The translations under genes and the position numbers were made by a program. The notes under the pieces were generated by a model. It worked only from the letters and a program-made list of their open reading frames with translations. It made no database searches and was not told the origin of the DNA. Positions 18,091 to 40,916 of a stretch of DNA of 64,000 bases are shown here, piece by piece. How positions within the stretch are numbered: the first letter of the stretch is position 1; each line of letters begins with the position of its first letter. The stretch comes from Minisyncoccota bacterium (GTDB taxonomy: Bacteria; Patescibacteriota; Minisyncoccia; Phycocordibacterales; JBAZVT01), in assembly GCA_041660745.1 (NCBI GenBank), contig JBAZVT010000003.1, forward strand, positions 1,880 through 65,879, read 5' to 3'.

Positions 18091-18241
18091 ATATCGTTCA
18101 GAATTTCTAAAAAAGAGTACGTGTAAAATTCTACTGAATTTTCACTCGGTCTCGGCTACCCGCCTGCGAAGCCTCATTTTTAGAAAATCCTCACTCCAGT
18201 AGAATAAGGTGTCCTTCGGACTCTAGGATTAGGGTACATAG

Positions 18242-18274
18242 AAAAGCCGCCTGAGTACAGGCGGCTTTTCTTGT
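18242..18274 (+). terminator. Terminator after the 916-aa gene
   Basis: AAAAGCCGCCTG pairs with CAGGCGGCTTTT (loop AGTA), followed by CTTG. Confidence 0.75.
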
Positions 18275-18317
18275 ATGTAGAGGAGGAAATGCCTTATTTT
18301 AAGCAAAATAACACATA

Positions 18318-18346
18318 TTGACGGAAGTACTCAAAAGGTGTATAAT
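18318..18346 (+). promoter_or_regulatory. Near-consensus sigma-70 promoter (TTGACG, 17 nt, TATAAT)
   Basis: TTGACG at 18318-18323 and TATAAT at 18341-18346, 72 nt upstream of the ATG at 18418. That ATG is preceded by the SD AAAGGAGG. Confidence 0.6.
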
Positions 18347-18417
18347 AGTATGTAGAGTGACTGAAGTCACAAACCGACTTCCGCCGGGTTGCGGATTGAA
18401 ATAAAAAGGAGGTCGTT

Positions 18418-18945
18418 ATGACCAAGGTTCAGGGTAATTGCGTTATTTTCTTGCTTGTGTCATTGATCATTGTTGGTTTTTGTATGCTTCCGGTGAACAA
18501 GCGTGAAAAACTGCTTCAGAATCAGTCAACAATGGCGCCGGCGGCAATGTCTCAAAACACCAGAGTCTTTCTGGATTACGTCGCTGGCAAGACAATCTCC
18601 AAGACTGACGTGGACGAAGCCTTTTACATAAGGGGTTCGGCTGGTTGGCTCGACACGGAGAAGATTCTTCGTGTGGCGAATGATCTCAAGGTTCCATGGG
18701 CTCAAGTCCATGATACGCTGGTTGTTCTCAACGAGAACTCGACAGTCATGTACATCGGTTCACAGGACAAGATTCTCGCCAAGTTTCGGGCGACCACTCA
18801 GCCAACCACAGCGCCGACGGTTCAGGTGGAGGCGACAAGTCAGGGTTCGTTGCCACCGGCAAGTGTCGTCGTCTATGGATGCTGGGCTCGCAACTATGTG
18901 GAGTCGGCGTACCAGGCGACTCATGATATGGGTCGGTGGGAATAA
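18418..18945 (+). CDS. Hypothetical membrane-anchored protein in a high-G+C islet
   Basis: Strong SD (AAAGGAGGTCGTTATG), an N-terminal TM segment (CVIFLLVSLIIVGFCML), and a Thr/Pro linker. No family recognised. Composition differs clearly from the flanks. Confidence 0.65.
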   Translation: MTKVQGNCVIFLLVSLIIVGFCMLPVNKREKLLQNQSTMAPAAMSQNTRVFLDYVAGKTISKTDVDEAFYIRGSAGWLDTEKILRVANDLKVPWAQVHDTLVVLNENSTVMYIGSQDKILAKFRATTQPTTAPTVQVEATSQGSLPPASVVVYGCWARNYVESAYQATHDMGRWE

Positions 18946-19003
18946 GGAAGATTACGTTTGGTTCTAGTGCCCGTGAACAGCAGTTCGCGGGCATAGTTTT
19001 TAT

Positions 19004-19037
19004 AAAAAAACCGGCTGATGGCAGCCGGTTTTGTTTT
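19004..19037. terminator. Bidirectional terminator between convergent genes
   Basis: An A7 run, then CCGGCTG paired with CAGCCGG, then TTTTGTTTTT. A second hairpin, GCCCG..CGGGC, lies at 18968-18992. Confidence 0.75.
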
Positions 19038-19924
19038 TAATCAAAAAACTTTATGAGATAGGAGTCGATTTCTCGTTGATCCATATCGTAAAAATTCTTT
19101 TTATCTCGGTAGAGTTTTTTGGCGAGACTCTCTCCGACATATCTCCAATGCCAAGGTTCATATTGATAATAAGCATTGTTCTGCGGGTATGAAAGTATAA
19201 AACCATATTTATAGGCATTATCTTGAAGCCATTTGTATGCAATCGTTCCATCAAATTGAGAATAATCTGAACCTAATTTGGCGGTGGTGAGATCAACTGT
19301 TGTTCCGAGTTGGTGTTCAGAATATCCCTGGTCTGCAGAGAATTTATTCGCGCCCGCACCATAGATCACTTTGTAGCTCGAGTTTAGTGAAGTCTGTTCT
19401 CCAAAAGAGCGGTATGCAGAGATGATTCGTAAGTCAGTCCCTGTAGCTTGTACGTCCTCTAGCATTTCTTTTAGGTGGGGCCAAACACCAGATAGTATTT
19501 CAAGGGGGCGTTCTTTGTTGTTGAGATATTCGGTGGAGATTAGCCGCAGTCTTTTGGGTGTGTAATGTTCGTTAAGAAAAAATACTTTTGAATATTTTTG
19601 TAATAATTGTTCGTCTATTGCGTTAAGTTTTTCTAACTCACTAACAGAGCTAGAAATATCTTCAATCTGTTCATTAAAAAGATTGTTCTTCTCTTGTTCG
19701 GTAGCAAGGGCCTCGCTTAGATTAAACTTATCGGTTTCAACTTGGGTCAGTTTTTCGCTTAGGTCTCTATTGAGCTGAATTTCTGCTTGAAGCGCTTGGT
19801 GAGTGTTGCGTGCGATCAAATAGTAGCGGACTCCTCCCACAGCACATAACACAGTAATCCCAATAGTTATAGGGAACACAAAATGCTTATATTTTGAAAG
19901 GGATTCTGAAAAAGATGGGTTCAT
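19037..19924 (-). CDS. VanY/M15B-family D-alanyl-D-alanine carboxypeptidase with N-terminal TM segment and coiled coil
   Basis: Motifs ISAYRSFGEQ, SEHQLGTTVDL and EPWHWRYVG (zinc ligands of peptidase M15). Confidence 0.85.
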   Translation of the reverse strand: MNPSFSESLSKYKHFVFPITIGITVLCAVGGVRYYLIARNTHQALQAEIQLNRDLSEKLTQVETDKFNLSEALATEQEKNNLFNEQIEDISSSVSELEKLNAIDEQLLQKYSKVFFLNEHYTPKRLRLISTEYLNNKERPLEILSGVWPHLKEMLEDVQATGTDLRIISAYRSFGEQTSLNSSYKVIYGAGANKFSADQGYSEHQLGTTVDLTTAKLGSDYSQFDGTIAYKWLQDNAYKYGFILSYPQNNAYYQYEPWHWRYVGESLAKKLYRDKKNFYDMDQREIDSYLIKFFD

Positions 19925-19961
19925 GGGTAAGATTATACCATAAATACTGCTGCTTGTGGTT

Positions 19962-20129
19962 TTAGCCGTTACTGAGCTTAAACCCTAACCAAATGCCCCC
20001 AATCCCACCTACTGCGGAGAGCGTGATTGACCACATGGAGAGAAATCCCGCCCCCCAGAGATTTGGTACGTAGCTACCAATAGTAGAACCCACAATCATT
20101 CCGATCCAGATGAGAGATTTTGATTCCAT
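19962..20129 (-). CDS. 55-aa two-helix small membrane protein
   Basis: Below the ORF-track cutoff. Reads MESKSLIWIGMIVGSTIGSYVPNLWGAGFLSMWSITLSAVGGIGGIWLGFKLSNG, starting at the ATG at 20129 and ending at the TAA at 19962-19964. Confidence 0.5.
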   Translation of the reverse strand: MESKSLIWIGMIVGSTIGSYVPNLWGAGFLSMWSITLSAVGGIGGIWLGFKLSNG

Positions 20130-20165
20130 GCGGATAGTATATCAAAAAATTAGTTCTTGTGTTTT

Positions 20166-21134
20166 TTAACTTAATATAATATTAAATATATAGCCCGTCG
20201 CAATAATCCCTGTAGCGACTATGCCAGCAAAAATGAGAATAAGTTGGGTTTTCATAACCTTCTTTAATATGATAAATTCGGGTAATGATAGTGCGGTGAC
20301 TGACATCATGAACGCCAACGCTGTCCCTACACTGACTCCCTTTTCCAAAAGAACACTCACAAGAGGAATGATGCCTGCCGCATTTGAATATAGTGGTATC
20401 CCTATAATTACTGCAACAGGGACGCTGTACCAGTGAGATGAGCCAATAATAGCAGTCAGGGCACTCGCTGGAACATAGCCATGAATAAGTGCTCCCAATC
20501 CGATGCCGACCAAGAGATAGGGCCAGACTTTTTTGATAATACCCAGTGTGTATTCGGAAGCAAAGTAGGCTCGTTTGGAGACGCTTATTTTTGTTTCTTC
20601 AAAATGAGCTGAAATTTTTTGTTTAAACACAAAGTCTTCGATGAGGTTTTCTGGTTTTAGGCGTCCAATGATAATACCACTCAGTATCGCGATTATTAAT
20701 CCTGTGATGACATAGAGGAGTGCAATTTTCCAACCAAACATTCCCAATAGAAGCACAAGAGCGACTTCGTTAATCATTGGAGATGATATGAGAAAAGAAA
20801 ATGTTACTCCAAGTGGCACCCCTGCCTGTATAAAACCTAGGAAAAGGGGAATAGCACTACAAGTACAGAATGGAGTAATGATTCCAAATAAAGACGCCAA
20901 GATATTACCAACGAATTCATTTTTTCTTACGAGAATACTACGTATTTTTTCCGCGGGTATAAAAGTTCTTACAAAAGAAATGGTGAAAATGATAATGACG
21001 AGCAGGAGAAGTATTTTGATTGTGTCATATATGAAGAAGTTCACAACGTGTGCAATGTGTGTTTCTGTCTGGATGTTTAAAATAGTAAAAGTTAGAAAGT
21101 CTGCAACAATTTTAATAGGATAAAATATGTCCAT
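20166..21134 (-). CDS. Predicted permease (YraQ/ArsP-like, PF03773-type)
   Basis: 8-10 TM segments. The Cys motif PFCTCSAIPLF is typical of this permease family, and the gene is the last in an ArsR-regulated redox operon. Confidence 0.75.
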   Translation of the reverse strand: MDIFYPIKIVADFLTFTILNIQTETHIAHVVNFFIYDTIKILLLLVIIIFTISFVRTFIPAEKIRSILVRKNEFVGNILASLFGIITPFCTCSAIPLFLGFIQAGVPLGVTFSFLISSPMINEVALVLLLGMFGWKIALLYVITGLIIAILSGIIIGRLKPENLIEDFVFKQKISAHFEETKISVSKRAYFASEYTLGIIKKVWPYLLVGIGLGALIHGYVPASALTAIIGSSHWYSVPVAVIIGIPLYSNAAGIIPLVSVLLEKGVSVGTALAFMMSVTALSLPEFIILKKVMKTQLILIFAGIVATGIIATGYIFNIILS

Positions 21135-21146
21135 GTAAATAAATTA

Positions 21147-21389
21147 TTAAGCAGACTGTTGTAAAATTATATTTTTTATTTTCTCCATATCCGCCGTTGC
21201 TCCAACCAAGACAACCTTATCGTTAATGACAAGCACGGGGCTCTGTAAAAGTCCCATTGCCACTATTTTCTGAATATCGCTTATATATTCGATTTCTGCC
21301 GTAATACCCATATCTCTTACGGTAGTTTGTACCAACTCAAACATTTTTTTACATGTAGGACATCCTGAACCAAGCACTTGGATTTTCAC
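21147..21389 (-). CDS. Thioredoxin-fold redox-active disulfide protein (CxxC)
   Basis: MKIQVLGSGCPTCKKM is the N-terminal CPTC motif of the small 'redox-active disulfide protein 2' family. Confidence 0.8.
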   Translation of the reverse strand: MKIQVLGSGCPTCKKMFELVQTTVRDMGITAEIEYISDIQKIVAMGLLQSPVLVINDKVVLVGATADMEKIKNIILQQSA

Positions 21390-21401
21390 GAGATATAGAG
21401 A

Positions 21402-21641
21402 TTATTTAGCGAGTAATGATTTAAATACTTCTGGTTGAAAACCAACAATGATATTGTTATCTATTTGAATTACAGGCACGCCCATCTGACCGCTTTTTTC
21501 TACCATTTCTTCACCAGCCTTTCTATCTTTGCTAACGTCAATATCTTCAAAGGGGACATTATTTTCTTTAAAGAAATCTTTTGCGTAAACACAGTATGGA
21601 CATGTTGGCGTTGAATAGACTTTTACGGTGTGGTTTTTCAT
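21402..21641 (-). CDS. Glutaredoxin-like protein (NrdH/Grx family)
   Basis: VKVYSTPTCPYCVYAKDFF carries a CPYC active site, and GVPVIQID is also present. Confidence 0.85.
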   Translation of the reverse strand: MKNHTVKVYSTPTCPYCVYAKDFFKENNVPFEDIDVSKDRKAGEEMVEKSGQMGVPVIQIDNNIIVGFQPEVFKSLLAK

Positions 21642-21670
21642 ATTGTTTTTTAATTATTGTTAATTTGTAA

Positions 21671-21943
21671 TTATTTGTATTTACAGATCAATTTTTTAAG
21701 ATCTGATACAAAAGGTTTGTCGGGAAGTTGATAAAAAGTACATTTGCCTTCTTGTGTGGGGTTAAGTAAGCCGTCGCGTTCCATAATGTGTAAGTGATGG
21801 GATACAATTGCGACGCTCATGGCGAGTTCTTTTGCAATGTCTGATACGCAAATTTTTTTATTATTAAAAATAACGCATAGAATTTTTAGACGGTTTTCTT
21901 CACCAACAGTCTTTAGTGCTTGTGCTAGTTCGTTCAAATGCAT
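21671..21943 (-). CDS. ArsR/SmtB-family transcriptional regulator
   Basis: Winged-HTH region LKILCVIFNNKKICVSDIAKELAMSVAIVSHHLHIMERDGLL. Confidence 0.88.
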   Translation of the reverse strand: MHLNELAQALKTVGEENRLKILCVIFNNKKICVSDIAKELAMSVAIVSHHLHIMERDGLLNPTQEGKCTFYQLPDKPFVSDLKKLICKYK

Positions 21944-22022
21944 GTTTGAATGATATACCTAATAGAAAAAGATGTCAACAAAGTAAAAACTCACACAATC
22001 TACAAATTGTGTGAGTTTTTTA

Positions 22023-23066
22023 TTAATTTTTGTTTAAAGTTATTTCTGAAGTTTTTTCTGGGGTTATAGTATTCTTGATAATATCCCAGTAGGTTGAGTC
22101 TCCTTTTTTTGTTTTTTGCCAATACCACCATTCTGATCCCCACATATAGACTCGCGATGCTCCAACACGGCGAGCGTAATTAATATTTTTTTCTAATTGT
22201 CGCGGATTCATTGTTTGTTCTTGTGTAGAAATGTCTGTGGTGAGGGGGGATCCATTATGAAACCATGGTTCACCTTGCAGTTCTGAAATAAAGAAATTAT
22301 CAAAACTGTTACCAAATAAACGTGCTTTTATTCGGTAAAGTCCTGCGGGAAGATAGTCGTAGTGCCACACGAAGCCGTAGCGAGAAATGATAAGTCTGTA
22401 TAGCGTTGAGCCGAGGATGTCTCCTGTTTTTGATGCTGAATACCATATAGACATCTCACCACTGTCCGTCATAACAATTTTACGGGTGGGATCCAATTGT
22501 CGTACGAGTGCGACTTCACGTTCAACGAGTGTTTTGTCAAAGGCATCGCAATCGCCAAAATCAAATTTGATAAAAGGCTCGTTTTCAATTTGCCAGTATT
22601 CTATGGATGGATTATTTTTGTATCTTTCAATCGCGTGTTGTATATAAGAGAGTACTTCTGACTGTCTTTTTTCTTTACTAAGTTCTCTTGCCCACTGGGG
22701 AAAATAACATTCTGGCCACCGGGGTATTTTTTGTCCGACGACAAAAAGAATTTTTGTATTATGTTTTCCCGCCTCATTCACAAGATAATCTGTTTCGGAA
22801 AAATCAAATGTTCCTTGTTGGGGTTCGAGCTTATTCCAGGGAGCGGATAAGCGTATCATTGTGGGTTTGAGGTCAGCAAGTATTGCTTGATATGTTTCTT
22901 TCCAGTCAAGGCCGAGAGACTCAGCGTATTCTGGACTGAAACTTACGCCAAATCGGGTGTTGGAGATATTATAAGAAAGAGTCCATAGAATCCCATATAT
23001 AAGAATGAGTATACCTATCAGTATTACGAGTATTCTTTTAATATATTTTAAAATTTTTTTATACAT
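22023..23066 (-). CDS. Membrane-anchored clan GH-A (TIM-barrel) glycoside hydrolase-like protein
   Basis: N-terminal TM segment. WNKLEPQQGTFDF and YWQIENEPF (the NEP acid/base motif) are typical of GH5/GH42-like enzymes. Confidence 0.6.
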   Translation of the reverse strand: MYKKILKYIKRILVILIGILILIYGILWTLSYNISNTRFGVSFSPEYAESLGLDWKETYQAILADLKPTMIRLSAPWNKLEPQQGTFDFSETDYLVNEAGKHNTKILFVVGQKIPRWPECYFPQWARELSKEKRQSEVLSYIQHAIERYKNNPSIEYWQIENEPFIKFDFGDCDAFDKTLVEREVALVRQLDPTRKIVMTDSGEMSIWYSASKTGDILGSTLYRLIISRYGFVWHYDYLPAGLYRIKARLFGNSFDNFFISELQGEPWFHNGSPLTTDISTQEQTMNPRQLEKNINYARRVGASRVYMWGSEWWYWQKTKKGDSTYWDIIKNTITPEKTSEITLNKN

Positions 23067-23083
23067 ACTATGTTAAATCAGCT

Positions 23084-24004
23084 CTAAAGAAATAAAAGAC
23101 CCGTAACGATAAGTACTATTGCTAGCGTCTGCATGATAAATTCTTTTCGAGTAAAATCTTCGGAGAATATTTTAGGGCGCATTTTTGTAAGAAGAAATAT
23201 AAAAATAAATACAAGGACATATTGTAAGCCAGCAAGCGCATTGACGATTGCCACACTTCCTATTGCAATAGCGTATTGAATACAGAGGGTGGAAACAATC
23301 CCAAGAGTTTTTGTTGTTGCAAACTTTGTGATTGATCCTTTTTGTTTTTCTACAGGTTGTTGCTGTGACTGTTCTGGAATGGCAACTTTTTTGTTGAATA
23401 TTTGTTTTCTAAAGCGGGGAATTAAAATAATGGCAATACCAACAATTCCTATTGAGCTTTTTGTCCAGATGAGTCCATTAATGAAGGGGTAGAGGGTGTA
23501 GATGTGTTTTGCGGAGATGTGTGAAAATGCAAATAGTAATCCGGAAATTATCGCCCACAGGAAGCCAAGATAGAGACCTTTTTCTCTATTGCTTTTTTCA
23601 TAGGAAAGAAAAAAGCTTGCGCCAATGAGAAGGGTGAGTCCTATTTTTTCATGCGGACTAAATGATGTGTTGAGTACAAAATACGAAAGAATAGCAGTTG
23701 CGACTGCGACTACCGCACCGACAAGTGGTGTAAGGTGGCTCGCTTCTCCGTGTCTGAACGCTATGTACATGGCCCACACTCCAAGACCGAAAGATATACC
23801 TGAGCCGAGCGACCACAACAAGTCTATGTTGTGTGGAAATCCAAAAAACGGTAGAAGGACTACAGTTATTGCTGAGAAGATTGTTGTGTAAAAAGCATAT
23901 ACTGCCGGATGTTTGAAGTTTGTTGTCAGAATACTTTTGTCTAATATTGAGACAAAAGCTAGAGCTGCATATCCGACAGATGCAAAGATAAATGAAGTGA
24001 TCAT
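23084..24004 (-). CDS. EamA/DMT-superfamily membrane transporter
   Basis: About 10 TM segments in two similar halves. Assigned on topology, with weak sequence recognition. Confidence 0.55.
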   Translation of the reverse strand: MITSFIFASVGYAALAFVSILDKSILTTNFKHPAVYAFYTTIFSAITVVLLPFFGFPHNIDLLWSLGSGISFGLGVWAMYIAFRHGEASHLTPLVGAVVAVATAILSYFVLNTSFSPHEKIGLTLLIGASFFLSYEKSNREKGLYLGFLWAIISGLLFAFSHISAKHIYTLYPFINGLIWTKSSIGIVGIAIILIPRFRKQIFNKKVAIPEQSQQQPVEKQKGSITKFATTKTLGIVSTLCIQYAIAIGSVAIVNALAGLQYVLVFIFIFLLTKMRPKIFSEDFTRKEFIMQTLAIVLIVTGLLFL

Positions 24005-25356
24005 AAGAAGTGGATATCTTGTATCTCTGTTTTGGTGCCTTGAGTAACGACGTTTATAATATTTTTTGTGCCATGTTTCGGACCATTCAAATAACCGTCC
24101 AGCGCTCCTTCAGCGAGAAGTCCTGAATTAATCCAGTCAAAAAGCCATTGGTGGGTATATCGTGAATCATCCTGCTGGAATCCAGCACCAATCATTTGCA
24201 ACCAAGATTTGTTGAATGTTTCTTGGGATCCGACAGTTGGTGCCATGATGATTGGAAGTCCGAGTCCTGCGTAAAATGAAAGCTCGCTCGGTTTTGTCCA
24301 GAGTAGATCAGTTTCTTGTAGGATCATGTCGAACTCCTTGAAATATTCAAATTTGTTTTGGTTGTATATAATCTGTATTCCGTTGTTATAGAGATCTTTT
24401 AAATTATTTTTTTCAATTGCTTCTTCAAATTTTTCTTTAATTATTTTTGATGAGCCTGCTACGAGATTTATTTTGATGGCCCCTTTTTTAATAGCTTCTG
24501 ATAGGGATGAGAGAACTTGAATACCGATTTCACTCTGTGCTCCAGCACCACCAATAGCGAAAGTGATTGTGATAGGAGTGTTGTCATATATCGCTCGCTT
24601 GATTTTTCCACAGTGTGCAGAAATAGTTTTGTTGAATTTTTTTTCAAAAATACCACGTGGGTCAAGTTTAATTATTCTGCGAGAAAGAGCCTTGAGTAGA
24701 ACATTGTCAGTATCGTCTGTTCCAATAAGTTCTTCAGGAAGCGGAAAACCAGTCACAATTATTTTTTGAGAGTTTACGCCATACATCTGTAATCGTTCTT
24801 GCACTCGGCGAGTTGGGGCAAGATAGGTAATTCTGCTTGTCTCTGGATTTAAAGGTGCCCACGCACGAGAGATATCGGTATCCGTGCAAAGACAATAGAT
24901 GTCACCGGCATATCCATGTTCTTCGGCAAAAAAGGCTGCAGTAAAAAATGTCGCCACAAAAGGGAGGGGTTTTTTGTTGAGAGTATCTATCAGATCTTTT
25001 CCAAAACCTTTATGTATTGCTCGGTATGTTTTTTGTAGTTGGGCTGTTGGTTTTGAAAGGTCTCGTTTTGGGTAAAACTGTTCAATCGTCTGAAAGAAAT
25101 CTAAAATACCGAAGATTATTTTCCCAACAAGAGGAAAACTCGTCATTTTGGAAAACCAATTATATCTTTTTTCCATTGTGTCCCAGATAATTTTATCGCT
25201 TTGTGCAATGCCGGGATAATTGTTTGCTGCGATAATCATGGGTTCTTTTATATTCCACTGTGGTGGTGTGGTTGCAATTGAAAGGAGGGGAAAACCGGCT
25301 CGCTGGTGTCCATATCCCATATCAACAGCGACTACGTATACATGTTCATGTTTCAT
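24001..25356 (-). CDS. GT-B fold glycosyltransferase-like protein (MGDG-synthase/MurG-like)
   Basis: N-terminal VVAVDMGYGHQRAG resembles the GxGHxxA motif of GT28-type enzymes. There is a 4-nt overlap (ATGA) with the downstream transporter gene. Confidence 0.45.
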   Translation of the reverse strand: MKHEHVYVVAVDMGYGHQRAGFPLLSIATTPPQWNIKEPMIIAANNYPGIAQSDKIIWDTMEKRYNWFSKMTSFPLVGKIIFGILDFFQTIEQFYPKRDLSKPTAQLQKTYRAIHKGFGKDLIDTLNKKPLPFVATFFTAAFFAEEHGYAGDIYCLCTDTDISRAWAPLNPETSRITYLAPTRRVQERLQMYGVNSQKIIVTGFPLPEELIGTDDTDNVLLKALSRRIIKLDPRGIFEKKFNKTISAHCGKIKRAIYDNTPITITFAIGGAGAQSEIGIQVLSSLSEAIKKGAIKINLVAGSSKIIKEKFEEAIEKNNLKDLYNNGIQIIYNQNKFEYFKEFDMILQETDLLWTKPSELSFYAGLGLPIIMAPTVGSQETFNKSWLQMIGAGFQQDDSRYTHQWLFDWINSGLLAEGALDGYLNGPKHGTKNIINVVTQGTKTEIQDIHFL

Positions 25357-25497
25357 ATAGATAGATTATAGCAAGTAATCTATCTGTTGTGCCATGATAT
25401 AACTGTGAATAATAGAGCCTGTTTACAATCTAATGTTTGAAACAAAAAAGACGAGCGAGTTTTGGAAAACTCGCTCGTCTTTTTTGGTATGTAATAA

Positions 25498-25653
25498 TTA
25501 CAAGCTGAATGTGGTGCCGAGGAAATATGGCCAAAGGATAATGGCGAGTACTCCTTTCCAGAAGGCGAGGTGAAGAAAGCCTATGGTGAAAAGCCATGCT
25601 CCTACCCATAATAACCCCGCACAACCACCTTGATTGACGTTTATTTTTTGCAT
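25498..25653 (-). CDS. Possible 51-aa small membrane protein
   Basis: Internal Met of ORF 25498..25800: MQKINVNQGGCAGLLWVGAWLFTIGFLHLAFWKGVLAIILWPYFLGTTFSL. It is followed by a 16-bp-stem terminator at 25448-25481. Confidence 0.35.
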   Translation of the reverse strand: MQKINVNQGGCAGLLWVGAWLFTIGFLHLAFWKGVLAIILWPYFLGTTFSL

Positions 25654-25723
25654 GGTTTCAGTGTATAATTTTTTTATGTGAAATGAGGGAAGAGTTTTAT
25701 TGCTATGGTAGGATGAGATAAGT

Positions 25724-25763
25724 ATAAAAAATCCGTCGGGAACCACTTGGTGGTTCCCGACGG
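25724..25763 (-). terminator. GC-rich terminator after the purH-fragment gene
   Basis: CCGTCGGGAACCAC pairs with GTGGTTCCCGACGG, with a T6 tail on the minus strand. Confidence 0.8.
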
Positions 25764-25792
25764 GGTATTGGCTGTATGCCGAGATAGGGGGG

Positions 25793-26392
25793 TTACCCAT
25801 GCTTGACTTGCGGAGTGAGGAATCTTTGCCCGCTCGCTTTTTTCTGACGCATCCACTTCGTGATCATCCGGTCGTAGTCCGAGGTAGCTGCAAAGACCTT
25901 GATCACCAACCTCTCGCGCTGGTCTTCCGAGATAGCGCCGGTTACAGTCAGTGATGCAACCACCCACTCATAATCGGTAGGATCAATGACCGGGATTGTC
26001 GAGATCCCGTTCTTGGACGCTGCGCGGATGAGCGAGGGGCCGCCGATATCAATCTCCTCAATGTCAGGTTTGTTCTTGAAGTCGTACAGATTGACCACGA
26101 CGAGATCAATCAGGTCGATGTGGTGCTCGACGAGCGCCGCAAGGTGTGCGGGAATGGCTCGTGCGGCGAGTATGCCGCCGAAGATGTTTGGATGGAGTGT
26201 CTTGACACGGCCGTCCAGCATTTCGGGAAAGCCCGTGACCTGCTCAATCGGAGTTACCTCGATGCCGACTGCCCGCAGTGCTTTCGCCGTCCCGCCGGTA
26301 GAGATGAACTCCCAACCTAGGGTGGCGAGCGGAAGAAGTTTTTCCAACCCACTCTTGTCCGTAACCGACACCAGTGCTCTTGGCATTGCCAT
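25793..26392 (-). CDS. Stand-alone IMP cyclohydrolase (MGS-like N-terminal domain of PurH) in a high-G+C islet
   Basis: ALVSVTDKSGL...ISTGGTAKAL...GRVKTLHPNIFGGILA...VVVNLYDF...IDIGGPSLIRAASKN is the PurH IMPCH domain. The ORF stops after the inter-domain linker, and no AICAR transformylase domain follows. SD is AAGGAG. Confidence 0.85.
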   Translation of the reverse strand: MAMPRALVSVTDKSGLEKLLPLATLGWEFISTGGTAKALRAVGIEVTPIEQVTGFPEMLDGRVKTLHPNIFGGILAARAIPAHLAALVEHHIDLIDLVVVNLYDFKNKPDIEEIDIGGPSLIRAASKNGISTIPVIDPTDYEWVVASLTVTGAISEDQRERLVIKVFAATSDYDRMITKWMRQKKASGQRFLTPQVKHG

Positions 26393-26469
26393 GAGAACTC
26401 CTTTTTAGGATTTTCTGCCACTGAAAGCCGTGGCCGCTTAACCGTTCTGAATGTAAGACTACGTATTTA

Positions 26470-27575
26470 ATTTTTTATGTCAAGATTTTGTACTCGTCCA
26501 CCACATATGAGACTCTGACGCTGGTAATGTAGACACAATATACCTCAAAGGAGATACAAGACCAAGCGACCAATGAGGACGCCTAGTGTTGTACCAAAGT
26601 AACCAATTAATGAGAGCTTCATTAAAAGCATCAATGTCATGAGCTAAAAGTTTTCTGTTTCTGTTAACAAAAGCTTCCACAACAGTTCGGTTGAATCGTT
26701 CAACTTCAGCGTTCATTTTTGGCGATCTTGGATATGTGTGAAAATGAACGATGTTGTTCTTTTCAAGCAGAACGTCAAAGTGGTCAGCAAACTCACTACC
26801 ATTGTCTGTTTGCACATGCGTAACAGGAAGTGGTGCAACATGTTTAAACTTCATCATGAAGTCAGCAGATGCTTTTGATGAATGAGAAGTATACGCATAT
26901 GCAAAAGCAAATTTTGATTCGCAATCAATACCAGTGAGCAAATATCTTTTAATACCATCGGTGAAGCGGATGACCGAATCTGCTTTAACTAGTCCTCCTT
27001 CGTGACCTTTAGAACGCAGTTTCTTGCGTTTAACTCTGATTTTCTCTCGAAAGGTATCTGATTTTGCATAGTATGAAAGTTTCGTATATTTTGGAAGTTT
27101 TCCTTGTTTCTTGAGATCATTTAACATTCGACCGACAGTAGATGCGGAGAGATCGGCAACCTTGTCTTCTTTCATGAGTACCGCCAGTTTGTCTTTGGAA
27201 AGTCTTGGATCATTCTGGCGTTCCTTGAGAATGAAATCTTCTACAACTTTTGGGATGACACGTTTTCTTCTTTGTTTAGGAGCAGTACTTTTTTTGTTGA
27301 GAAACTCCAGTTTTCCCATACCATCTCGAAGTTCTTTTTGCCAGCGAAAAAGAGTTGGTCTTGAAATGCCAAAGGCTTCTTTAGTGGCAGTTGTTCCATA
27401 CTTCTCCCAAAACGCTAATATCCTGCACCTTTCTTTTGCGGTTTCGCTAATCATATACTTGAAGCGTATCACACGCTCCCAAGTACTAATGAAGCCCTTT
27501 GTTCCTCTAAATTTATTGAAAATGCGCATATGAAAACTCTAATTAAAGAGTCTCATATGTTTCTGAACTTATGCA
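26470..27575 (-). mobile_element. IS481-like insertion sequence (boundaries uncertain)
   Basis: A single DDE (rve) transposase ORF. The only terminal symmetry found is the 12-bp inverted repeat CATATGAGACTC (26506-26517) / GAGTCTCATATG (27549-27560). No target-site duplication was identified. Confidence 0.6.
26480..27529 (-). CDS. IS481-family transposase (HTH plus integrase-core DDE domain)
   Basis: N-terminal HTH region and an rve core (TGIDCESKF...VQTDNGSEF...NAEVERFNRT...YNTRRPHWSL). Confidence 0.88.
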   Translation of the reverse strand: MRIFNKFRGTKGFISTWERVIRFKYMISETAKERCRILAFWEKYGTTATKEAFGISRPTLFRWQKELRDGMGKLEFLNKKSTAPKQRRKRVIPKVVEDFILKERQNDPRLSKDKLAVLMKEDKVADLSASTVGRMLNDLKKQGKLPKYTKLSYYAKSDTFREKIRVKRKKLRSKGHEGGLVKADSVIRFTDGIKRYLLTGIDCESKFAFAYAYTSHSSKASADFMMKFKHVAPLPVTHVQTDNGSEFADHFDVLLEKNNIVHFHTYPRSPKMNAEVERFNRTVVEAFVNRNRKLLAHDIDAFNEALINWLLWYNTRRPHWSLGLVSPLRYIVSTLPASESHMWWTSTKS

Positions 27576-27670
27576 GGTTATGGCAAAAAACGCCTTAGCA
27601 GGAGAGCCCCAAGACTAACTGTTGAAAAAAGCCTCAAAAGTGCTAAGGTGTATACATACAAACTTATACC

Positions 27671-29047
27671 ATGAGAATTCTATTCATCTCAAACGACCTT
27701 ATAGCTGGAAATCTCGCCTATCGCCTCAAACAAGAAGGTCATGATGTTAAGTTGTTCGTTGAAGAACCCCTCAGTAAAGAATGCTTCTCTGGATTAGTAG
27801 AAAAAATCGAAGATTGGAAAAAGGAACTTGATTGGGTTGGAAAAGACGGGTTGATTGTTTTTGATGACGCAGGATACGGTGAAATGCAAGAAAAGCTTCG
27901 TAACGATGGCTATACTGTATTTGGCGGTTGCTATGTTGGCGACAAACTTGAAACAGAAAGAGAGTACGGCCAAGCAATCTTCAAAGAATACGGCCTCAAG
28001 ACAGCTCCCCTCAAAAACTTTTCTTCTGTCCAAGATGCAATTGCATATGTAAAGAAAAATGGTGGGTCCTGGGTTATCAAACAAAACAACCACAACTTCA
28101 AACATCTCAGCTACGTGGGTAAATTTGAGGACGGAAGAGATATTGTTAACGTTCTAGAAAACTACGAACTACGCAACGGAGAGATAGACAAAATTACTCT
28201 GCATAAAAAGATTGAAGGCGTGGAAATAGGAGTGGGTAGATATTTTAATGGAACAGACTGGGTAGGGCCAATAGAATATAATATAGAACATACGAAACTA
28301 TTCCCTGGCTGTATTGGACCGACAACGAGCGAAATGGGAACTCTTGCTTGGTATGACGATGATGAATCAGGCAAACTTTTTAAAGAAAATTTAAATCTTC
28401 TCAAGCCATTCCTGCAACATATAGGCTATCGAGGTGATTTTGAAGTCAATTTTATAGTTAACGAGACGGGTGCATATCCACTGGAAGCAACCGCGCGTCT
28501 CGGCACCCCCATCATTCATTTGCATGATGAGATACACGAGAGTCCATGGGGAGAATTTTTATATGCCATCGCCCGTGGTGAACAATATGATTTAAAATAC
28601 AAGAAAGGATTTGGTATTGTCGTTGTTATTGCCACTCCCCCATTCCCATACTCAGAACGTGCTTACAATAGACTTTCAAACAACAACTCATACCGCTACA
28701 ACATATATTTTGATCACGAGATGAGCGCAGAAGAAATGAGCCATATTCATTTTGAAGAGGTGGCTGTGCGTGCTACTGATCCAAAACAACTCTATGTTGC
28801 AGACAGCCGAGGTAATGTTCTCTATGTTACTGGTATGGGACAAACAATCCAGGAAGCACGGGATATCACCTACGAAAAAATAAAACCGATTGTTATTCCT
28901 AAAATGTTCTACAGAAACGATATCGGAGTCGAATTTGAAAAAAATAGTCTTGGAAAACTTAAGGAATGGGGCTACATAGCCGACGGAGAAAAAAGTGAGG
29001 TAGCAGAAATGAACACAATTAGTGAGAAAACGATCGTAGGAATATAA
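27671..29047 (+). CDS. PurD-like ATP-grasp enzyme (phosphoribosylamine-glycine ligase homologue)
   Basis: Collinear with PurD: MRILFISN, LETEREYGQAIFKEYGLKTAP, GGSWVIKQNN, EHTKLFPGCIGPTTSEMGT and FEVNFIVNETGAYPLEATARLGTP. It is divergent, so true GARS activity is uncertain. Confidence 0.6.
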   Translation: MRILFISNDLIAGNLAYRLKQEGHDVKLFVEEPLSKECFSGLVEKIEDWKKELDWVGKDGLIVFDDAGYGEMQEKLRNDGYTVFGGCYVGDKLETEREYGQAIFKEYGLKTAPLKNFSSVQDAIAYVKKNGGSWVIKQNNHNFKHLSYVGKFEDGRDIVNVLENYELRNGEIDKITLHKKIEGVEIGVGRYFNGTDWVGPIEYNIEHTKLFPGCIGPTTSEMGTLAWYDDDESGKLFKENLNLLKPFLQHIGYRGDFEVNFIVNETGAYPLEATARLGTPIIHLHDEIHESPWGEFLYAIARGEQYDLKYKKGFGIVVVIATPPFPYSERAYNRLSNNNSYRYNIYFDHEMSAEEMSHIHFEEVAVRATDPKQLYVADSRGNVLYVTGMGQTIQEARDITYEKIKPIVIPKMFYRNDIGVEFEKNSLGKLKEWGYIADGEKSEVAEMNTISEKTIVGI

Positions 29048-29104: not shown

Positions 29105-30094
29105 TTATGTTTCTAAAAGCTCTCGTATCCCATCTTCAATATTCACTGTTGGCTTCCAGTCGAGAAGTTTCTTAGCAAGCGCATTATCAGCAAGAGTGTG
29201 TTTCGGTTCTAAACGTCCAGAAATATGTTCAACGGGACCGCCAATAAGCTCGGCAATTTTATTAATTGAAACATTATTCCCCGCCCCAATATTTATCACC
29301 TCACCCTTCCCCACCTTATCACTTTCCATTGCCAAGATATTTGCTCGCACAACATCACGCACATGAGTAAAATCGCGAGTCTGTTTACCATCTCCAACAA
29401 TAGTCATTGGCTTCCCTACCTGTCGCTGTTTCAAAAAACTCGGGATTACAAGTGCATATGCACCCTCAGAACTCTGCCTCAAACCATATACATTAAAATA
29501 TCTGAGACTGACTGTAGGCACCCTGTACACCTCGCTCCATGTCTTGCAATATATTTCTCCAACATATTTTTGTAAGCCATAGGGACTCTTGGGCATTGCA
29601 GTCATAGACTCAACCAGTGGCATTGTTGGTTGGTCACCATATACAGAACTTGAAGCAGAATAAATAAGTTTTTTGACCCCTGCCCATCTACATGCCTCAA
29701 GCACATTTATTGTTCCGCCAATATTAACTTCGTTTGTTTCCTGAGGATGTTCTATAGAATACTGAACGCGAGGCAAAGCAGCACAATGGAAGACGTACTG
29801 AACATCTTTAAATACTTTCTTTATTGATTCCAGACTACACACATCGGCAATATGAAGTGTTGCTTTTTTGTTCACATTTTCTCTCCTCCCTTCAGATAAA
29901 TTATCTATAATATGCACATTGAAACCTCTTTCAACTAATGCATCAACTATATTAGAGCCAATAAAACCGGCACCGCCGGTTACAACAACTTTTATAGTTG
30001 ATGGCGGGATAGTGACTCGTTTTAGTCTACTTCGTTTTGTATTTTTATTTTTCATTATCATCATAGGAAGAGACATTATAACGTATCTAGACAA
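29105..30094 (-). CDS. NAD-dependent sugar-nucleotide epimerase/dehydratase (SDR), paralogue A
   Basis: VVTGGAGFIGSN Rossmann motif and the YGLQK catalytic Tyr-x3-Lys. The true start is probably an internal Met (MIMKNKN...). Confidence 0.9.
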   Translation of the reverse strand: MSRYVIMSLPMMIMKNKNTKRSRLKRVTIPPSTIKVVVTGGAGFIGSNIVDALVERGFNVHIIDNLSEGRRENVNKKATLHIADVCSLESIKKVFKDVQYVFHCAALPRVQYSIEHPQETNEVNIGGTINVLEACRWAGVKKLIYSASSSVYGDQPTMPLVESMTAMPKSPYGLQKYVGEIYCKTWSEVYRVPTVSLRYFNVYGLRQSSEGAYALVIPSFLKQRQVGKPMTIVGDGKQTRDFTHVRDVVRANILAMESDKVGKGEVINIGAGNNVSINKIAELIGGPVEHISGRLEPKHTLADNALAKKLLDWKPTVNIEDGIRELLET

Positions 30095-30320: not shown

Positions 30321-31244
30321 TTATTTCTCCATCTCCAACAGCTCCCTTATCCCCTCCTCAATTTTCATTGATGGTTTCCAGCCAAGTAACTTACGGGCAC
30401 GTGAATTATCTGCAAGGGTGTGTTTCGGTTCAAGACGTGCGGGGATATGCTCTGCGGGACCGCCAATGAGTTTGGCGATTTCATTCACGGAAATATTCTG
30501 TCCGGATCCTATATTAATCACCTCGCCCTTCCCCACCTTATCGCTCCCCATCGCTAAAATATTTGCTTGTACAATATCTCGCACATGAGTGAAGTCGCGA
30601 GTCTGTGTACCATCTCCTGTAATAGTCATCTTCTTGCCCTCACGATGCTGTTTGAGAAACCGGGCAATAACAAGTGCATAAGCACCCTCTTCGCTCTGGC
30701 GAGGGCCGTAGGCATTAAAATAGCGCAAACTGACGGTAGACAAGCCATACACCTCACTCCACGTTTTACAATAGAGTTCCCCGACATATTTCTGTAAACC
30801 ATAGGGACTTTTTGGACTGGCAAGCATACCTTCCACAAGAGGCATTTTTGTCTGATCACCATATGCCGCAGATGAGGCGGAATAGATAAGTTTTTTCACC
30901 CCTGAAGCGCGACAGGCCTCAAGCACATTTATTGTTCCGCCAATATTAACCTCGTTTGTTTCTTGAGGATGTTCTATAGAATACTGAACTCGAGGCATCG
31001 CAGCAAGATGGAATACATAGTCAGCACCTTTGAATAATTTTTTCAGAGCTGTGAAATTACAAATATCTGCGACATGAAGATGTGCCTTTTTATGCACATT
31101 CTTTCTCTTCCCCTCCGAAAGATTATCTACAACATGAACATCGAAACCCTTCTCCACAAGTGCATCTGTTAGATTTGAACCTATAAATCCTGCTCCACCA
31201 GTGACGACAACTTTGATTTTTGAATCATTCTTCAATGCAGGCAT
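30321..31244 (-). CDS. NAD-dependent sugar-nucleotide epimerase/dehydratase (SDR), paralogue B
   Basis: Has the same motifs as paralogue A. The two proteins align along their whole length with most residues identical. Confidence 0.9.
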   Translation of the reverse strand: MPALKNDSKIKVVVTGGAGFIGSNLTDALVEKGFDVHVVDNLSEGKRKNVHKKAHLHVADICNFTALKKLFKGADYVFHLAAMPRVQYSIEHPQETNEVNIGGTINVLEACRASGVKKLIYSASSAAYGDQTKMPLVEGMLASPKSPYGLQKYVGELYCKTWSEVYGLSTVSLRYFNAYGPRQSEEGAYALVIARFLKQHREGKKMTITGDGTQTRDFTHVRDIVQANILAMGSDKVGKGEVINIGSGQNISVNEIAKLIGGPAEHIPARLEPKHTLADNSRARKLLGWKPSMKIEEGIRELLEMEK

Positions 31245-37250: not shown

Positions 37251-37360
37251 TTCTGGCGGCTAGCTACTTTCCCCTCCATAAGAGTATCATCACCGCAAGA
37301 GAGCTTAACTTCTGAGTTCGGAATGAGATCAGGTGTATCCCCTCCGCCATACCACCAGAA
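37251..37360 (-). rRNA. rrf: 5S ribosomal RNA
   Basis: The minus strand reads TTCTGGTGGTATGGCGGAGGGGATACACCTGATCTCATTCCGAACTCAGAAGTTAAGC...CCGCCAGAA. This gives helix I pairing and the conserved CCGAAC / AGAAGTTAAGC loop-B/C region. Confidence 0.9.

Positions 37361-37498: not shown

Positions 37499-40916
<3,418 letters not shown>

Follow-up and report, generated by a model that had tools for sequence, protein, structure and literature searches.

A probable stand-alone IMP cyclohydrolase gene in a Candidatus Paceibacterota genome, with an IS481-like element and a PurD-like gene as neighbours

Layout of the locus

The stretch of DNA analysed here (64,000 nt, positions 1,880 to 65,879 of contig JBAZVT010000003.1; hereafter the window) carries a 199-codon open reading frame (ORF) corresponding to the inosine monophosphate (IMP) cyclohydrolase half of the purine enzyme PurH, the half that carries out the final step of purine synthesis, lying between a glycosyltransferase gene and an insertion sequence (IS), beyond which stands a gene for a PurD-like ATP-grasp ligase. 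We consider it likely that a Candidatus Paceibacterota host has inherited the ORF vertically, as a native and monocistronic gene whose product is a stand-alone IMP cyclohydrolase (IMPCH) of the PurH2 type. Both the IMPCH and the PurD-like protein are identical to NCBI entries of one Candidatus Paceibacterota bacterium metagenome-assembled genome (MAG), within the Patescibacteria or candidate phyla radiation (CPR), and lie there on a contig of 80.8 kb. The comparisons below make repeated use of contig L001, an independent Logan assembly of run SRR18595301, and of contigs L002-L004, from a sister lineage that holds the closest non-identical relative of the IMPCH protein (P0002, 70% amino acid identity). 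The features of the locus, in window coordinates, are the following.

24001-25356, minus strand: DUF6938 glycosyltransferase gene, from the ORF listing.
25485-25444, minus strand: terminator-like hairpin belonging to the 51-residue ORF.
25498-25653, minus strand: small hydrophobic ORF with a conserved core of 51 residues, from the ORF listing; 82% amino acid identity in L002-L004, and also called as a gene in L001, L003 and L004.
25733-25763, minus strand: intrinsic terminator of the IMPCH gene, a 14-bp stem with 10 G-C pairs followed by a T-run.
25793-26392, minus strand: IMPCH coding sequence (CDS), 199 residues, from domain matches (NCBI MFA6094465.1, locus tag WC757_01080).
26398-26403, minus strand: Shine-Dalgarno sequence AAGGAG, 5 nt before the ATG at 26392 and kept in L002.
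26417-26442, minus strand: conserved 5' leader element, AAGCGG followed by the hairpin GCCAC/GGCUUUCA/GUGGC at 26434-26417, with a stem of 4-5 bp.
26456-26483, minus strand: predicted native sigma-70-like promoter, with a -35 box TTGACA at 26483-26478, a 16-nt spacer and a -10 box TAGTCT at 26461-26456.
26480-27529, minus strand: IS481-like transposase CDS, 349 residues, with a helix-turn-helix (HTH) and an rve integrase core.
26489-27575, minus strand: IS481-like insertion sequence of ~1.09 kb, its right end well supported and its left end approximate.
26503-26516, no strand assigned: right arm (ACATATGAGACTCT) of an inverted repeat that is perfect over 14 bp, with its partner at 27547-27560.
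27671-29047, plus strand: PurD-like ATP-grasp ligase paralogue, 458 residues (NCBI MFA6094467.1).

A complete IMP cyclohydrolase domain

The 199-residue ORF matches the Pfam domain MGS (PF02142, 5e-17) and only the first 62 positions of AICARFT_IMPCHas, and it covers positions 5-198 of the 510 in the NCBIfam PurH model PRK00881. Among PDB structures, the N-terminal domains of PurH match residues 4-186 at E-values of 7e-43 to 6e-33. These matches bear out the identification of the ORF as the cyclohydrolase half of PurH that had been made from the letters of the DNA. As a bifunctional PurH the protein fails, scoring 218 bits against a cut-off of 402 with PRK00881 and 192 against 528 with TIGR00355, and the ORF ends after the inter-domain linker. 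It shares with bifunctional PurH the motifs SV(S/T)DK, STGGT, GRVKTLHP, NLYxF and IDIGGxxxxRAAxKN together with the four catalytic residues, but differs in having no formyltransferase domain for AICAR (5-aminoimidazole-4-carboxamide ribonucleotide), in a 9-residue deletion between NLYxF and IDIGG, and in ending in a short conserved C-terminal tail, RFLxP, in place of the linker.

The key residues of human IMPCH, Lys66, Tyr104, Asp125 and Lys137 (PMC3261824), have as counterparts K64, Y103, D115 and K127, each of which is present in 78/78 members of the stand-alone family described in the next section, where the phosphate-binding motifs SVTDK, STGGT and GRVKTLHP are invariant as well. When the 55 columns that are at least 97% invariant among 135 full-length PurH N-domains are considered, 39 are retained by at least 90% of the family, and most of the others by a majority. 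The unfused PurH2 of Archaeoglobus fulgidus, AF1811, has been shown to convert FAICAR (5-formamidoimidazole-4-carboxamide ribonucleotide) into IMP and to complement E. coli (PMC6797443). By homology, the 199-residue protein would likewise close the FAICAR ring to give IMP, an activity that we infer because the catalytic residues and the PurH N-domain columns are kept and because AF1811 is active.

AF1811 resembles the window protein, by description, as a naturally stand-alone PurH2-type IMPCH; it is, however, archaeal and belongs to a genome whose purine pathway uses PurP one step earlier (PMC3261824), whereas the window comes from a Patescibacterium, and a partner enzyme is not in view. ForH, from the formycin cluster of Streptomyces kaniharaensis (PDB 6NKO), is a bacterial stand-alone IMPCH homologue of ~216 residues, but at E 4e-25 it is a more distant match to the window protein than ordinary PurH N-domains are, and it is encoded in a secondary-metabolite cluster (PMC7118188), whereas the window gene, like its relatives, is monocistronic and has housekeeping genes around it.

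The sequence-only reading had regarded the ORF as a complete stand-alone cassette, not one truncated by the IS, with its own Shine-Dalgarno sequence and a G+C-rich terminator. This view holds: AAGGAG is found at 26398-26403 and the terminator at 25763-25733, a Patescibacterial family of about 80 proteins of 180-225 residues exists, and a syntenic orthologue of equal length stands at a locus free of the IS.

A stand-alone family in Patescibacteria

A database search with the IMPCH protein returns thousands of relatives, and the best 120 listed are mostly of 180-225 residues and 48-70% identical, several of which bear the name "IMP cyclohydrolase" and come from MAGs of Patescibacteria, Paceibacterota or Parcubacteria. 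The 199-codon gene is, in this sense, a member of a large stand-alone IMPCH family that some database records already call by that name. In a neighbour-joining (NJ) tree, the stand-alone Patescibacterial proteins form one clade apart from the N-domains of full-length PurH, with a bootstrap of 65%. The clade is marked by the spacing between NLYxF and IDIGG, which is 8 residues instead of 17 in 72/76 stand-alone proteins and in 1/17 full-length ones; in a wider set of 150 full-length genes none has the 8-residue spacing, 149 having the 17-residue loop and one a loop of 16. Further clade signatures are the replacements of His71 by Phe, of Pro104 by Asp or Asn, and of Ser11 by Thr.

Unfused bacterial IMPCH genes of ~196-198 residues also exist outside the Patescibacteria, as on the Desulfarculaceae contig L051 (196 residues). 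Unlike the window gene, these keep the 17-residue loop and cluster with full-length PurH, and the one on L051 is followed by a genuine purD. Since the non-Patescibacterial stand-alone genes have the long loop and this placement, unfused IMPCH appears to have arisen more than once.

No non-Patescibacterial donor of the gene is identifiable from these sequences. Gemmatimonadota, which provide the closest full-length matches, were considered and rejected, their proteins falling outside the Patescibacterial clade, and Acidimicrobiia were rejected too, the grouping of CPR and Acidimicrobiia having an NJ bootstrap of only 0.7%. Full-length PurH proteins of Acidimicrobiia/Microthrixaceae (L009, L048, L075, L079, L080) share the 9-residue loop deletion beside the catalytic Tyr, which we take as convergent because of that low bootstrap. 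Scans of genome and metagenome contigs with the IMPCH protein found almost only full-length PurH (Gemmatimonadota, Armatimonadota and others, at 47-57% identity) and no close relatives, and tblastn against phages gave only purH-type matches of at most 50% identity.

Promoter and 5' leader

Upstream of the IS-free orthologues on L002, L170, L165, L167, L168 and L169 lies a TTGAC(A/T)-16/17-TAnnnT layout, and this conservation suggests that the TTGACA-16-TAGTCT pair of the window drives IMPCH transcription; a generic promoter scan did not call the pair. The hexamer had been described from the sequence alone as facing outward from the IS end toward the gene. It is there, at 26483-26478 and so one base away from the 26482-26477 first given, but it is best read as the -35 box of the gene itself, conserved in orthologues that have no IS. 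Since the upstream homology between the window and the IS-free L002 extends to 26488, TTGACA is native DNA outside the IS.

From the promoter to the end of the leader hairpin, 58/66 nt are identical to L002, compared with 71% identity in the CDS. The hairpin recurs upstream of IMPCH in L170, L165 and L167, which belong to different sub-clades, with a compensatory change of A-U to G-C, and has the consensus stem CCRC/GYGG with a conserved loop GGCUnnCA. It is located at ~9944-9968 in L002, ~700-725 in L170, ~9960-9985 in L165 and ~9948-9975 in L167, and is not present upstream of IMPCH in L166, L168, L169 and L005. Searching positions 26370-26500 against Rfam 15 gave two weak matches at E<=10 (E 0.84 and 3.3), both far under their gathering scores, and the leader's minimum-free-energy fold shows no unusual stability (z = -0.86). 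A relaxed hairpin pattern has no second copy in the window or the CPR loci and finds chance matches in G+C-rich genomes only. The hairpin may be a cis-regulatory RNA or, equally, a palindromic DNA operator.

The IS481-like element and the assembly

The transposase has rve, rve_3 and HTH_32 domains and finds its best NCBIfam match in IS481 at 176 bits, under the cut-off of 224, so that its earlier description as IS481-type is borne out as IS481-like. The element resembles the IS481 family in that its one transposase ORF combines an HTH at the N-terminus with an rve DDE core, and in its length of ~1.1 kb, inverted repeats and TG termini; it departs from the family in scoring under the NCBIfam cut-off, in its imperfect outer ends and in showing no target-site duplication. 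The perfect 14-bp inverted repeat is subterminal, and both proposed outer ends start with TG and match each other imperfectly, with neither a target-site duplication nor any direct repeat flanking them. The window holds a single copy of the IS, and plasmid blastn with it gave one irrelevant weak match.

The right end of the IS is set by the limit of L002 homology (26488) and by the break of L001 (26517). The transposase ORF overruns this end, its last two codons and TGA lying in the flanking DNA, with the TGA inside the -35 hexamer. The IS is a later insertion 5 nt upstream of the IMPCH -35 box that left the promoter intact. It is located where synteny with L002 ends, as would fit an IS-associated rearrangement or, with lower probability, a mis-join.

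L001 matches window positions 15793-26517 at 99.97% identity over 10,725 nt and terminates at 26517, 29 nt into the IS, a break that is expected because the IS is a repeat. This match therefore validates the join of the G+C-rich gene to the low-G+C glycosyltransferase block, and the concern that the locus might be a chimeric MAG assembly is removed for that junction; it persists for the join of the IS to the PurD-like gene, which is found in a single assembly. Between the two sides of the IS, tetranucleotide signatures have a correlation of 0.95, equal to the value within one side.

Composition and inheritance

The IMPCH CDS has a G+C content of 0.560, against 0.410 +/- 0.032 in the 47 other ORFs (z = 4.6), and a third-position G+C content (GC3) of 0.675, against 0.349 +/- 0.059 (z = 5.5). 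The G+C-rich stretch begins at the start codon and consists of exactly this CDS and the terminator at 25763-25733. Counts by hand in the sequence-only reading (37/60 at 26101 and 13/60 at 19561) are exact, and its word "foreign" holds as far as the G+C content is atypical; it does not hold in the sense of recent import or mis-assembly, given a syntenic and equally G+C-rich orthologue in the sister lineage. On L002-L004 the order is IMPCH, (188-aa ORF), 51-residue ORF, DUF6938 glycosyltransferase, EamA and glycoside hydrolase, in agreement with the window, and the flanking proteins are 75-82% identical to those of the window, while the IS and the PurD-like gene are both absent from the locus. 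The IMPCH gene of the sister lineage has 56% G+C and a GC3 of 0.72, with flanks of ~42%.

At four-fold degenerate sites, the two IMPCH genes are 46% identical, compared with 38-46% for five flanking genes and 27-32% expected from composition only, although their G+C content at these sites (GC4) is 0.73 and 0.77, against 0.28-0.42 in the flanks. The four-fold identity is like that of the flanks, so that the divergence of IMPCH is as old as that of the genes around it. On these comparisons, the G+C excess appears as a long-standing trait common to the orthologues and not as the mark of a recent event. Across nine Patescibacterial lineages, IMPCH has a higher G+C content than its locus in seven, by 5 to 15 points, and an equal or lower one in two (L166, L169). 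The excess most likely comes from an old transfer out of a G+C-richer Patescibacterium into the common ancestor with the sister lineage, since partly ameliorated; one family member, on L167, has a GC3 of 0.89.

Two observations on L002 concern the surroundings of the gene. At L002 7000-9100, two more genes immediately upstream of IMPCH, one an ORF of 186 aa and the other coding for an AAA_28 protein, have 53-60% G+C in a genome of ~42%, so that G+C-rich islands recur around the IMPCH locus. Besides, an HTH/thioredoxin/ArsP cluster (L001 4575-6352, L002 4613-6098) is found on one side of the IMPCH block in the lineage of the window and on the other side in the sister lineage, with an identity of only 45% between the ArsP proteins; the surroundings of the block have been rearranged.

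The PurD-like neighbour and the genomic context

The 458-residue protein gives weak GARS_A and GARS_C matches and reaches 90.6 bits with TIGR00877, whose cut-off is 288, its best PDB relatives being PurD (E 6e-17). It belongs to the ATP-grasp enzymes, with a PF01071 GARS_A match and with Lys, Glu and Arg core columns kept at 97-100% in its family. As an equivalog of PurD it fails: judged against 12 genuine PurD proteins from purH-purD loci, 27/77 PurD-invariant columns are kept, and these are the ATP-grasp core positions. It has in common with PurD the ATP-grasp fold and the ATP/Mg core K, E and R-x-G-x-P, but it lacks GGREHA, APGN, NTGGMG, GDPE and GYP, in whose place stand different residues, of which many are conserved at 90-100% across the PurD-like family. 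The divergence from PurD remarked upon at first sight is therefore real. Because the PurD motifs have been exchanged for residues that are strictly conserved in the family, the protein is probably not a glycinamide ribonucleotide (GAR) synthetase and would be a paralogue with a different substrate rather than a fast-evolving PurD.

The PurD-like family is very large and tightly conserved in Paceibacterota, the listed top matches being 53-62% identical and about 430-500 residues long, and NCBI names these relatives [quoted passage not shown]. Annotation pipelines thus give the name PurD to an uncharacterised family of ATP-grasp ligases. The invariant residues of its own (P0122-P0240) include W55, R97, E206, E221, W227, T274 and P324-F325.

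The pairing of IMPCH with the PurD-like gene, taken in the sequence-only reading as a hint of salvage-type or moonlighting use, is not conserved: in seven other Patescibacterial lineages, DNA or gene tables have no PurD-like gene within 10 kb of IMPCH, and most PurD signature residues are lost. The PurD-like gene on L171 has neither IMPCH nor pur genes nearby. Apart from the window's own, no contig is common to the match lists of the two proteins, which is uninformative given the sampling. The adjacency is best seen as incidental, arising through the synteny breakpoint at the IS.

The 64-kb window holds no other pur genes, as had been noted from the start, and a tblastn search with PurH proteins from six loci, five of them full-length and one stand-alone, hits nothing but the IMPCH ORF, with no AICARFT-like sequence in the window. 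IMPCH is monocistronic in every context examined. Its neighbours are unrelated between lineages (histidyl-tRNA synthetase, GatCA, S-adenosylmethionine synthetase, NUDIX/HAD, glycoside hydrolases), and guilt by association is therefore uninformative.

Discussion

In the mechanism that we favour, IMPCH would be transcribed from its own TTGACA-16-TAGTCT promoter into an RNA with a leader of ~60 nt and the conserved small hairpin, ending at the strong intrinsic terminator, and the protein would convert FAICAR into IMP. The later IS481-like insertion would mark a synteny breakpoint that brought an unrelated PurD-like gene alongside. Several points weigh against this account. The changes peculiar to the family border the catalytic Tyr, and a shift in specificity could follow from them. 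In the window, and up to 10 kb from the IMPCH genes of seven other Patescibacterial lineages, there is neither a FAICAR-forming enzyme (AICARFT/PurH1 or PurP) nor any other pur gene, which leaves the substrate supply of IMPCH unexplained, and Patescibacteria are generally reported to be without nucleotide biosynthesis (PMC11809585). The join of the IS to the PurD-like gene rests on one assembly across a repeat. Finally, under a crude neutral model the GC4 of ~0.75 is, given the extent of synonymous change, above expectation, even from a donor with a GC3 of ~0.9, by ~1.5-2.5 standard errors (n = 52 sites); by this estimate of our own, simple incomplete amelioration is not secure because GC4 exceeds what the model predicts.

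This last point leads to the possibility, which we doubt but take seriously, that the high G+C content is actively maintained, by codon or mRNA selection or by recurrent allele replacement from G+C-richer relatives, and is no fading relic of one transfer. Such maintenance would account for a GC4 that stays at 0.73-0.77 in both lineages, for an excess of four-fold identity that is about a fifth of the maximum (0.46 observed, 0.31 expected), and for the recurrence of the G+C excess in 7/9 lineages. The four-fold sites are, however, just 52, the amelioration model is crude, and a donor with a GC3 of ~0.9 does exist in the family (L167). The excess is missing from L166 and L169, and the housekeeping genes of the window (S6, EF-P, enolase and RecA) have a GC3 of merely 0.31-0.41, which argues against expression-linked codon selection.

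It is improbable that the protein has the IMPCH fold but serves another substrate or role, such as a ForH-like cyclisation of a different carboxamide nucleotide or the opening of the IMP ring. ForH itself (PDB 6NKO, 216 aa) is a precedent for a bacterial stand-alone homologue at work in formycin biosynthesis (PMC7118188), the clade deletion with P104D and H71F lies beside the active-site Tyr, and no FAICAR-forming enzyme is in view; yet the four catalytic residues and the phosphate-binding motifs are invariant, and the eight contexts show a monocistronic gene with housekeeping neighbours and no secondary-metabolite cluster.

More improbable again is a two-step, folate-independent salvage of AICAR to IMP, in which the PurD-like ligase, like archaeal PurP, would use formate and ATP to turn AICAR into FAICAR, whose ring IMPCH would then close. 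The two genes are adjacent in the window, Archaeoglobi pair the ATP-grasp enzyme PurP with an unfused PurH2 (PMC3261824), and the PurD-like family keeps its ATP-grasp core with the substrate-side motifs swapped, the pattern of a changed substrate; phosphoribosylamine (PRA), moreover, is like AICAR a ribose-5-phosphate amine, as we reason from the chemistry. The adjacency, though, is found in the window only, between divergent genes with an IS between them at a synteny breakpoint, and neither the seven other lineages, within 10 kb of IMPCH, nor L171 repeats it. The sequence resembles PurD, not PurP, and no PurD-like protein above 62% identity was found, whereas the other proteins of the sister lineage reach 70-82%. 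An extended version has Paceibacteria running a minimal AICAR-to-IMP branch, with a neofunctionalised PurD-like ligase formylating AICAR, IMPCH closing the ring and the leader hairpin serving as a sensor or regulatory site; this is a long shot, though if true such a branch would let presumed purine auxotrophs turn scavenged AICA-riboside or its monophosphate ZMP into IMP.

There is very little chance that the G+C-rich segment came in recently as foreign DNA, or that the MAG assembly is chimeric with its join at the IS. G+C and GC3 are clear outliers, and the IS that adjoins the gene is where L002 synteny stops; against this, the sister lineage has an orthologue at the same locus with the same G+C excess and a flank-like synonymous divergence, it keeps the A+T-rich promoter and leader, L001 spans the gene and its left flank, and tetranucleotides agree across the IS. 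For the IMPCH gene itself this reading is refuted. Already refuted, too, with next to no chance of being right, is the idea that the ORF is what remains of a bifunctional purH split by the IS or by a deletion: it does stop exactly at the inter-domain linker, but the IS lies upstream of the promoter and so away from the 3' end, the window has no AICARFT-like sequence after the stop or in any other place, a terminator comes directly after the gene, and 78 family members share its length and C-terminal tail.

What looked like a striking G+C island beside an IS is an old resident gene with its own conserved promoter, and not a fresh transfer, a truncation or an artefact. The finding is mostly ordinary, the IS and the PurD-like gene being incidental neighbours of IMPCH, and the persistent G+C excess, the conserved leader hairpin and the unexplained metabolic role in a reduced genome remain as points of modest interest. 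The clade-specific IMPCH looks catalytically intact from its residues and is conserved in many Patescibacteria, which are usually described as without nucleotide biosynthesis; in the searchable literature, we found no discussion of a stand-alone IMPCH in this group. If the enzyme is active, the cells must obtain or make FAICAR, a concrete gap in models of CPR purine metabolism. Besides, pathways in Patescibacterial genomes may be less complete than KEGG-style calls of "purH present" and "purD present" suggest. In a survey of KEGG modules, de novo purine synthesis is counted as complete in 32% of CPR MAGs (PMC11608272). By our own reasoning, counts of this kind could be inflated by IMPCH and PurD-like calls.

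Other features of the window

The remaining gene content of the window is typical Patescibacterial housekeeping, with enolase, iPGM, a two-component system, TruB, a sigma factor, MacB/FtsX, glycosyltransferases, epimerases, FtsW, 23S and 5S rRNA, FtsK, RecA, EF-P and the S6 ribosomal protein. The window has no tRNA or 16S genes. Its 23S rRNA gene (37507-40906, minus strand) is 3,400 nt long against a model of 2,925 nt, implying ~475 nt of insertions or an intron, and contains no ORF of at least 110 aa; a 5S gene follows it at 37251-37359.

A second compositional outlier is a 175-aa ORF at 18418-18945 on the plus strand (GC 0.51, GC3 0.585), which has no Pfam match, recurs on the identical contig L001 and finds no counterpart by tblastn in L002. 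At 29105-30094 and 30321-31244, both on the minus strand, two tandem paralogous genes for NAD-dependent epimerases/dehydratases stand beside NUDIX, sugar-transferase and GT4 (glycosyltransferase family 4) genes, a neighbourhood that looks like a cell-envelope glycan cluster. The second mobile-element gene of the window is a 231-aa ORF at 50387-51082 on the minus strand, with an IS200-like Y1 transposase domain.

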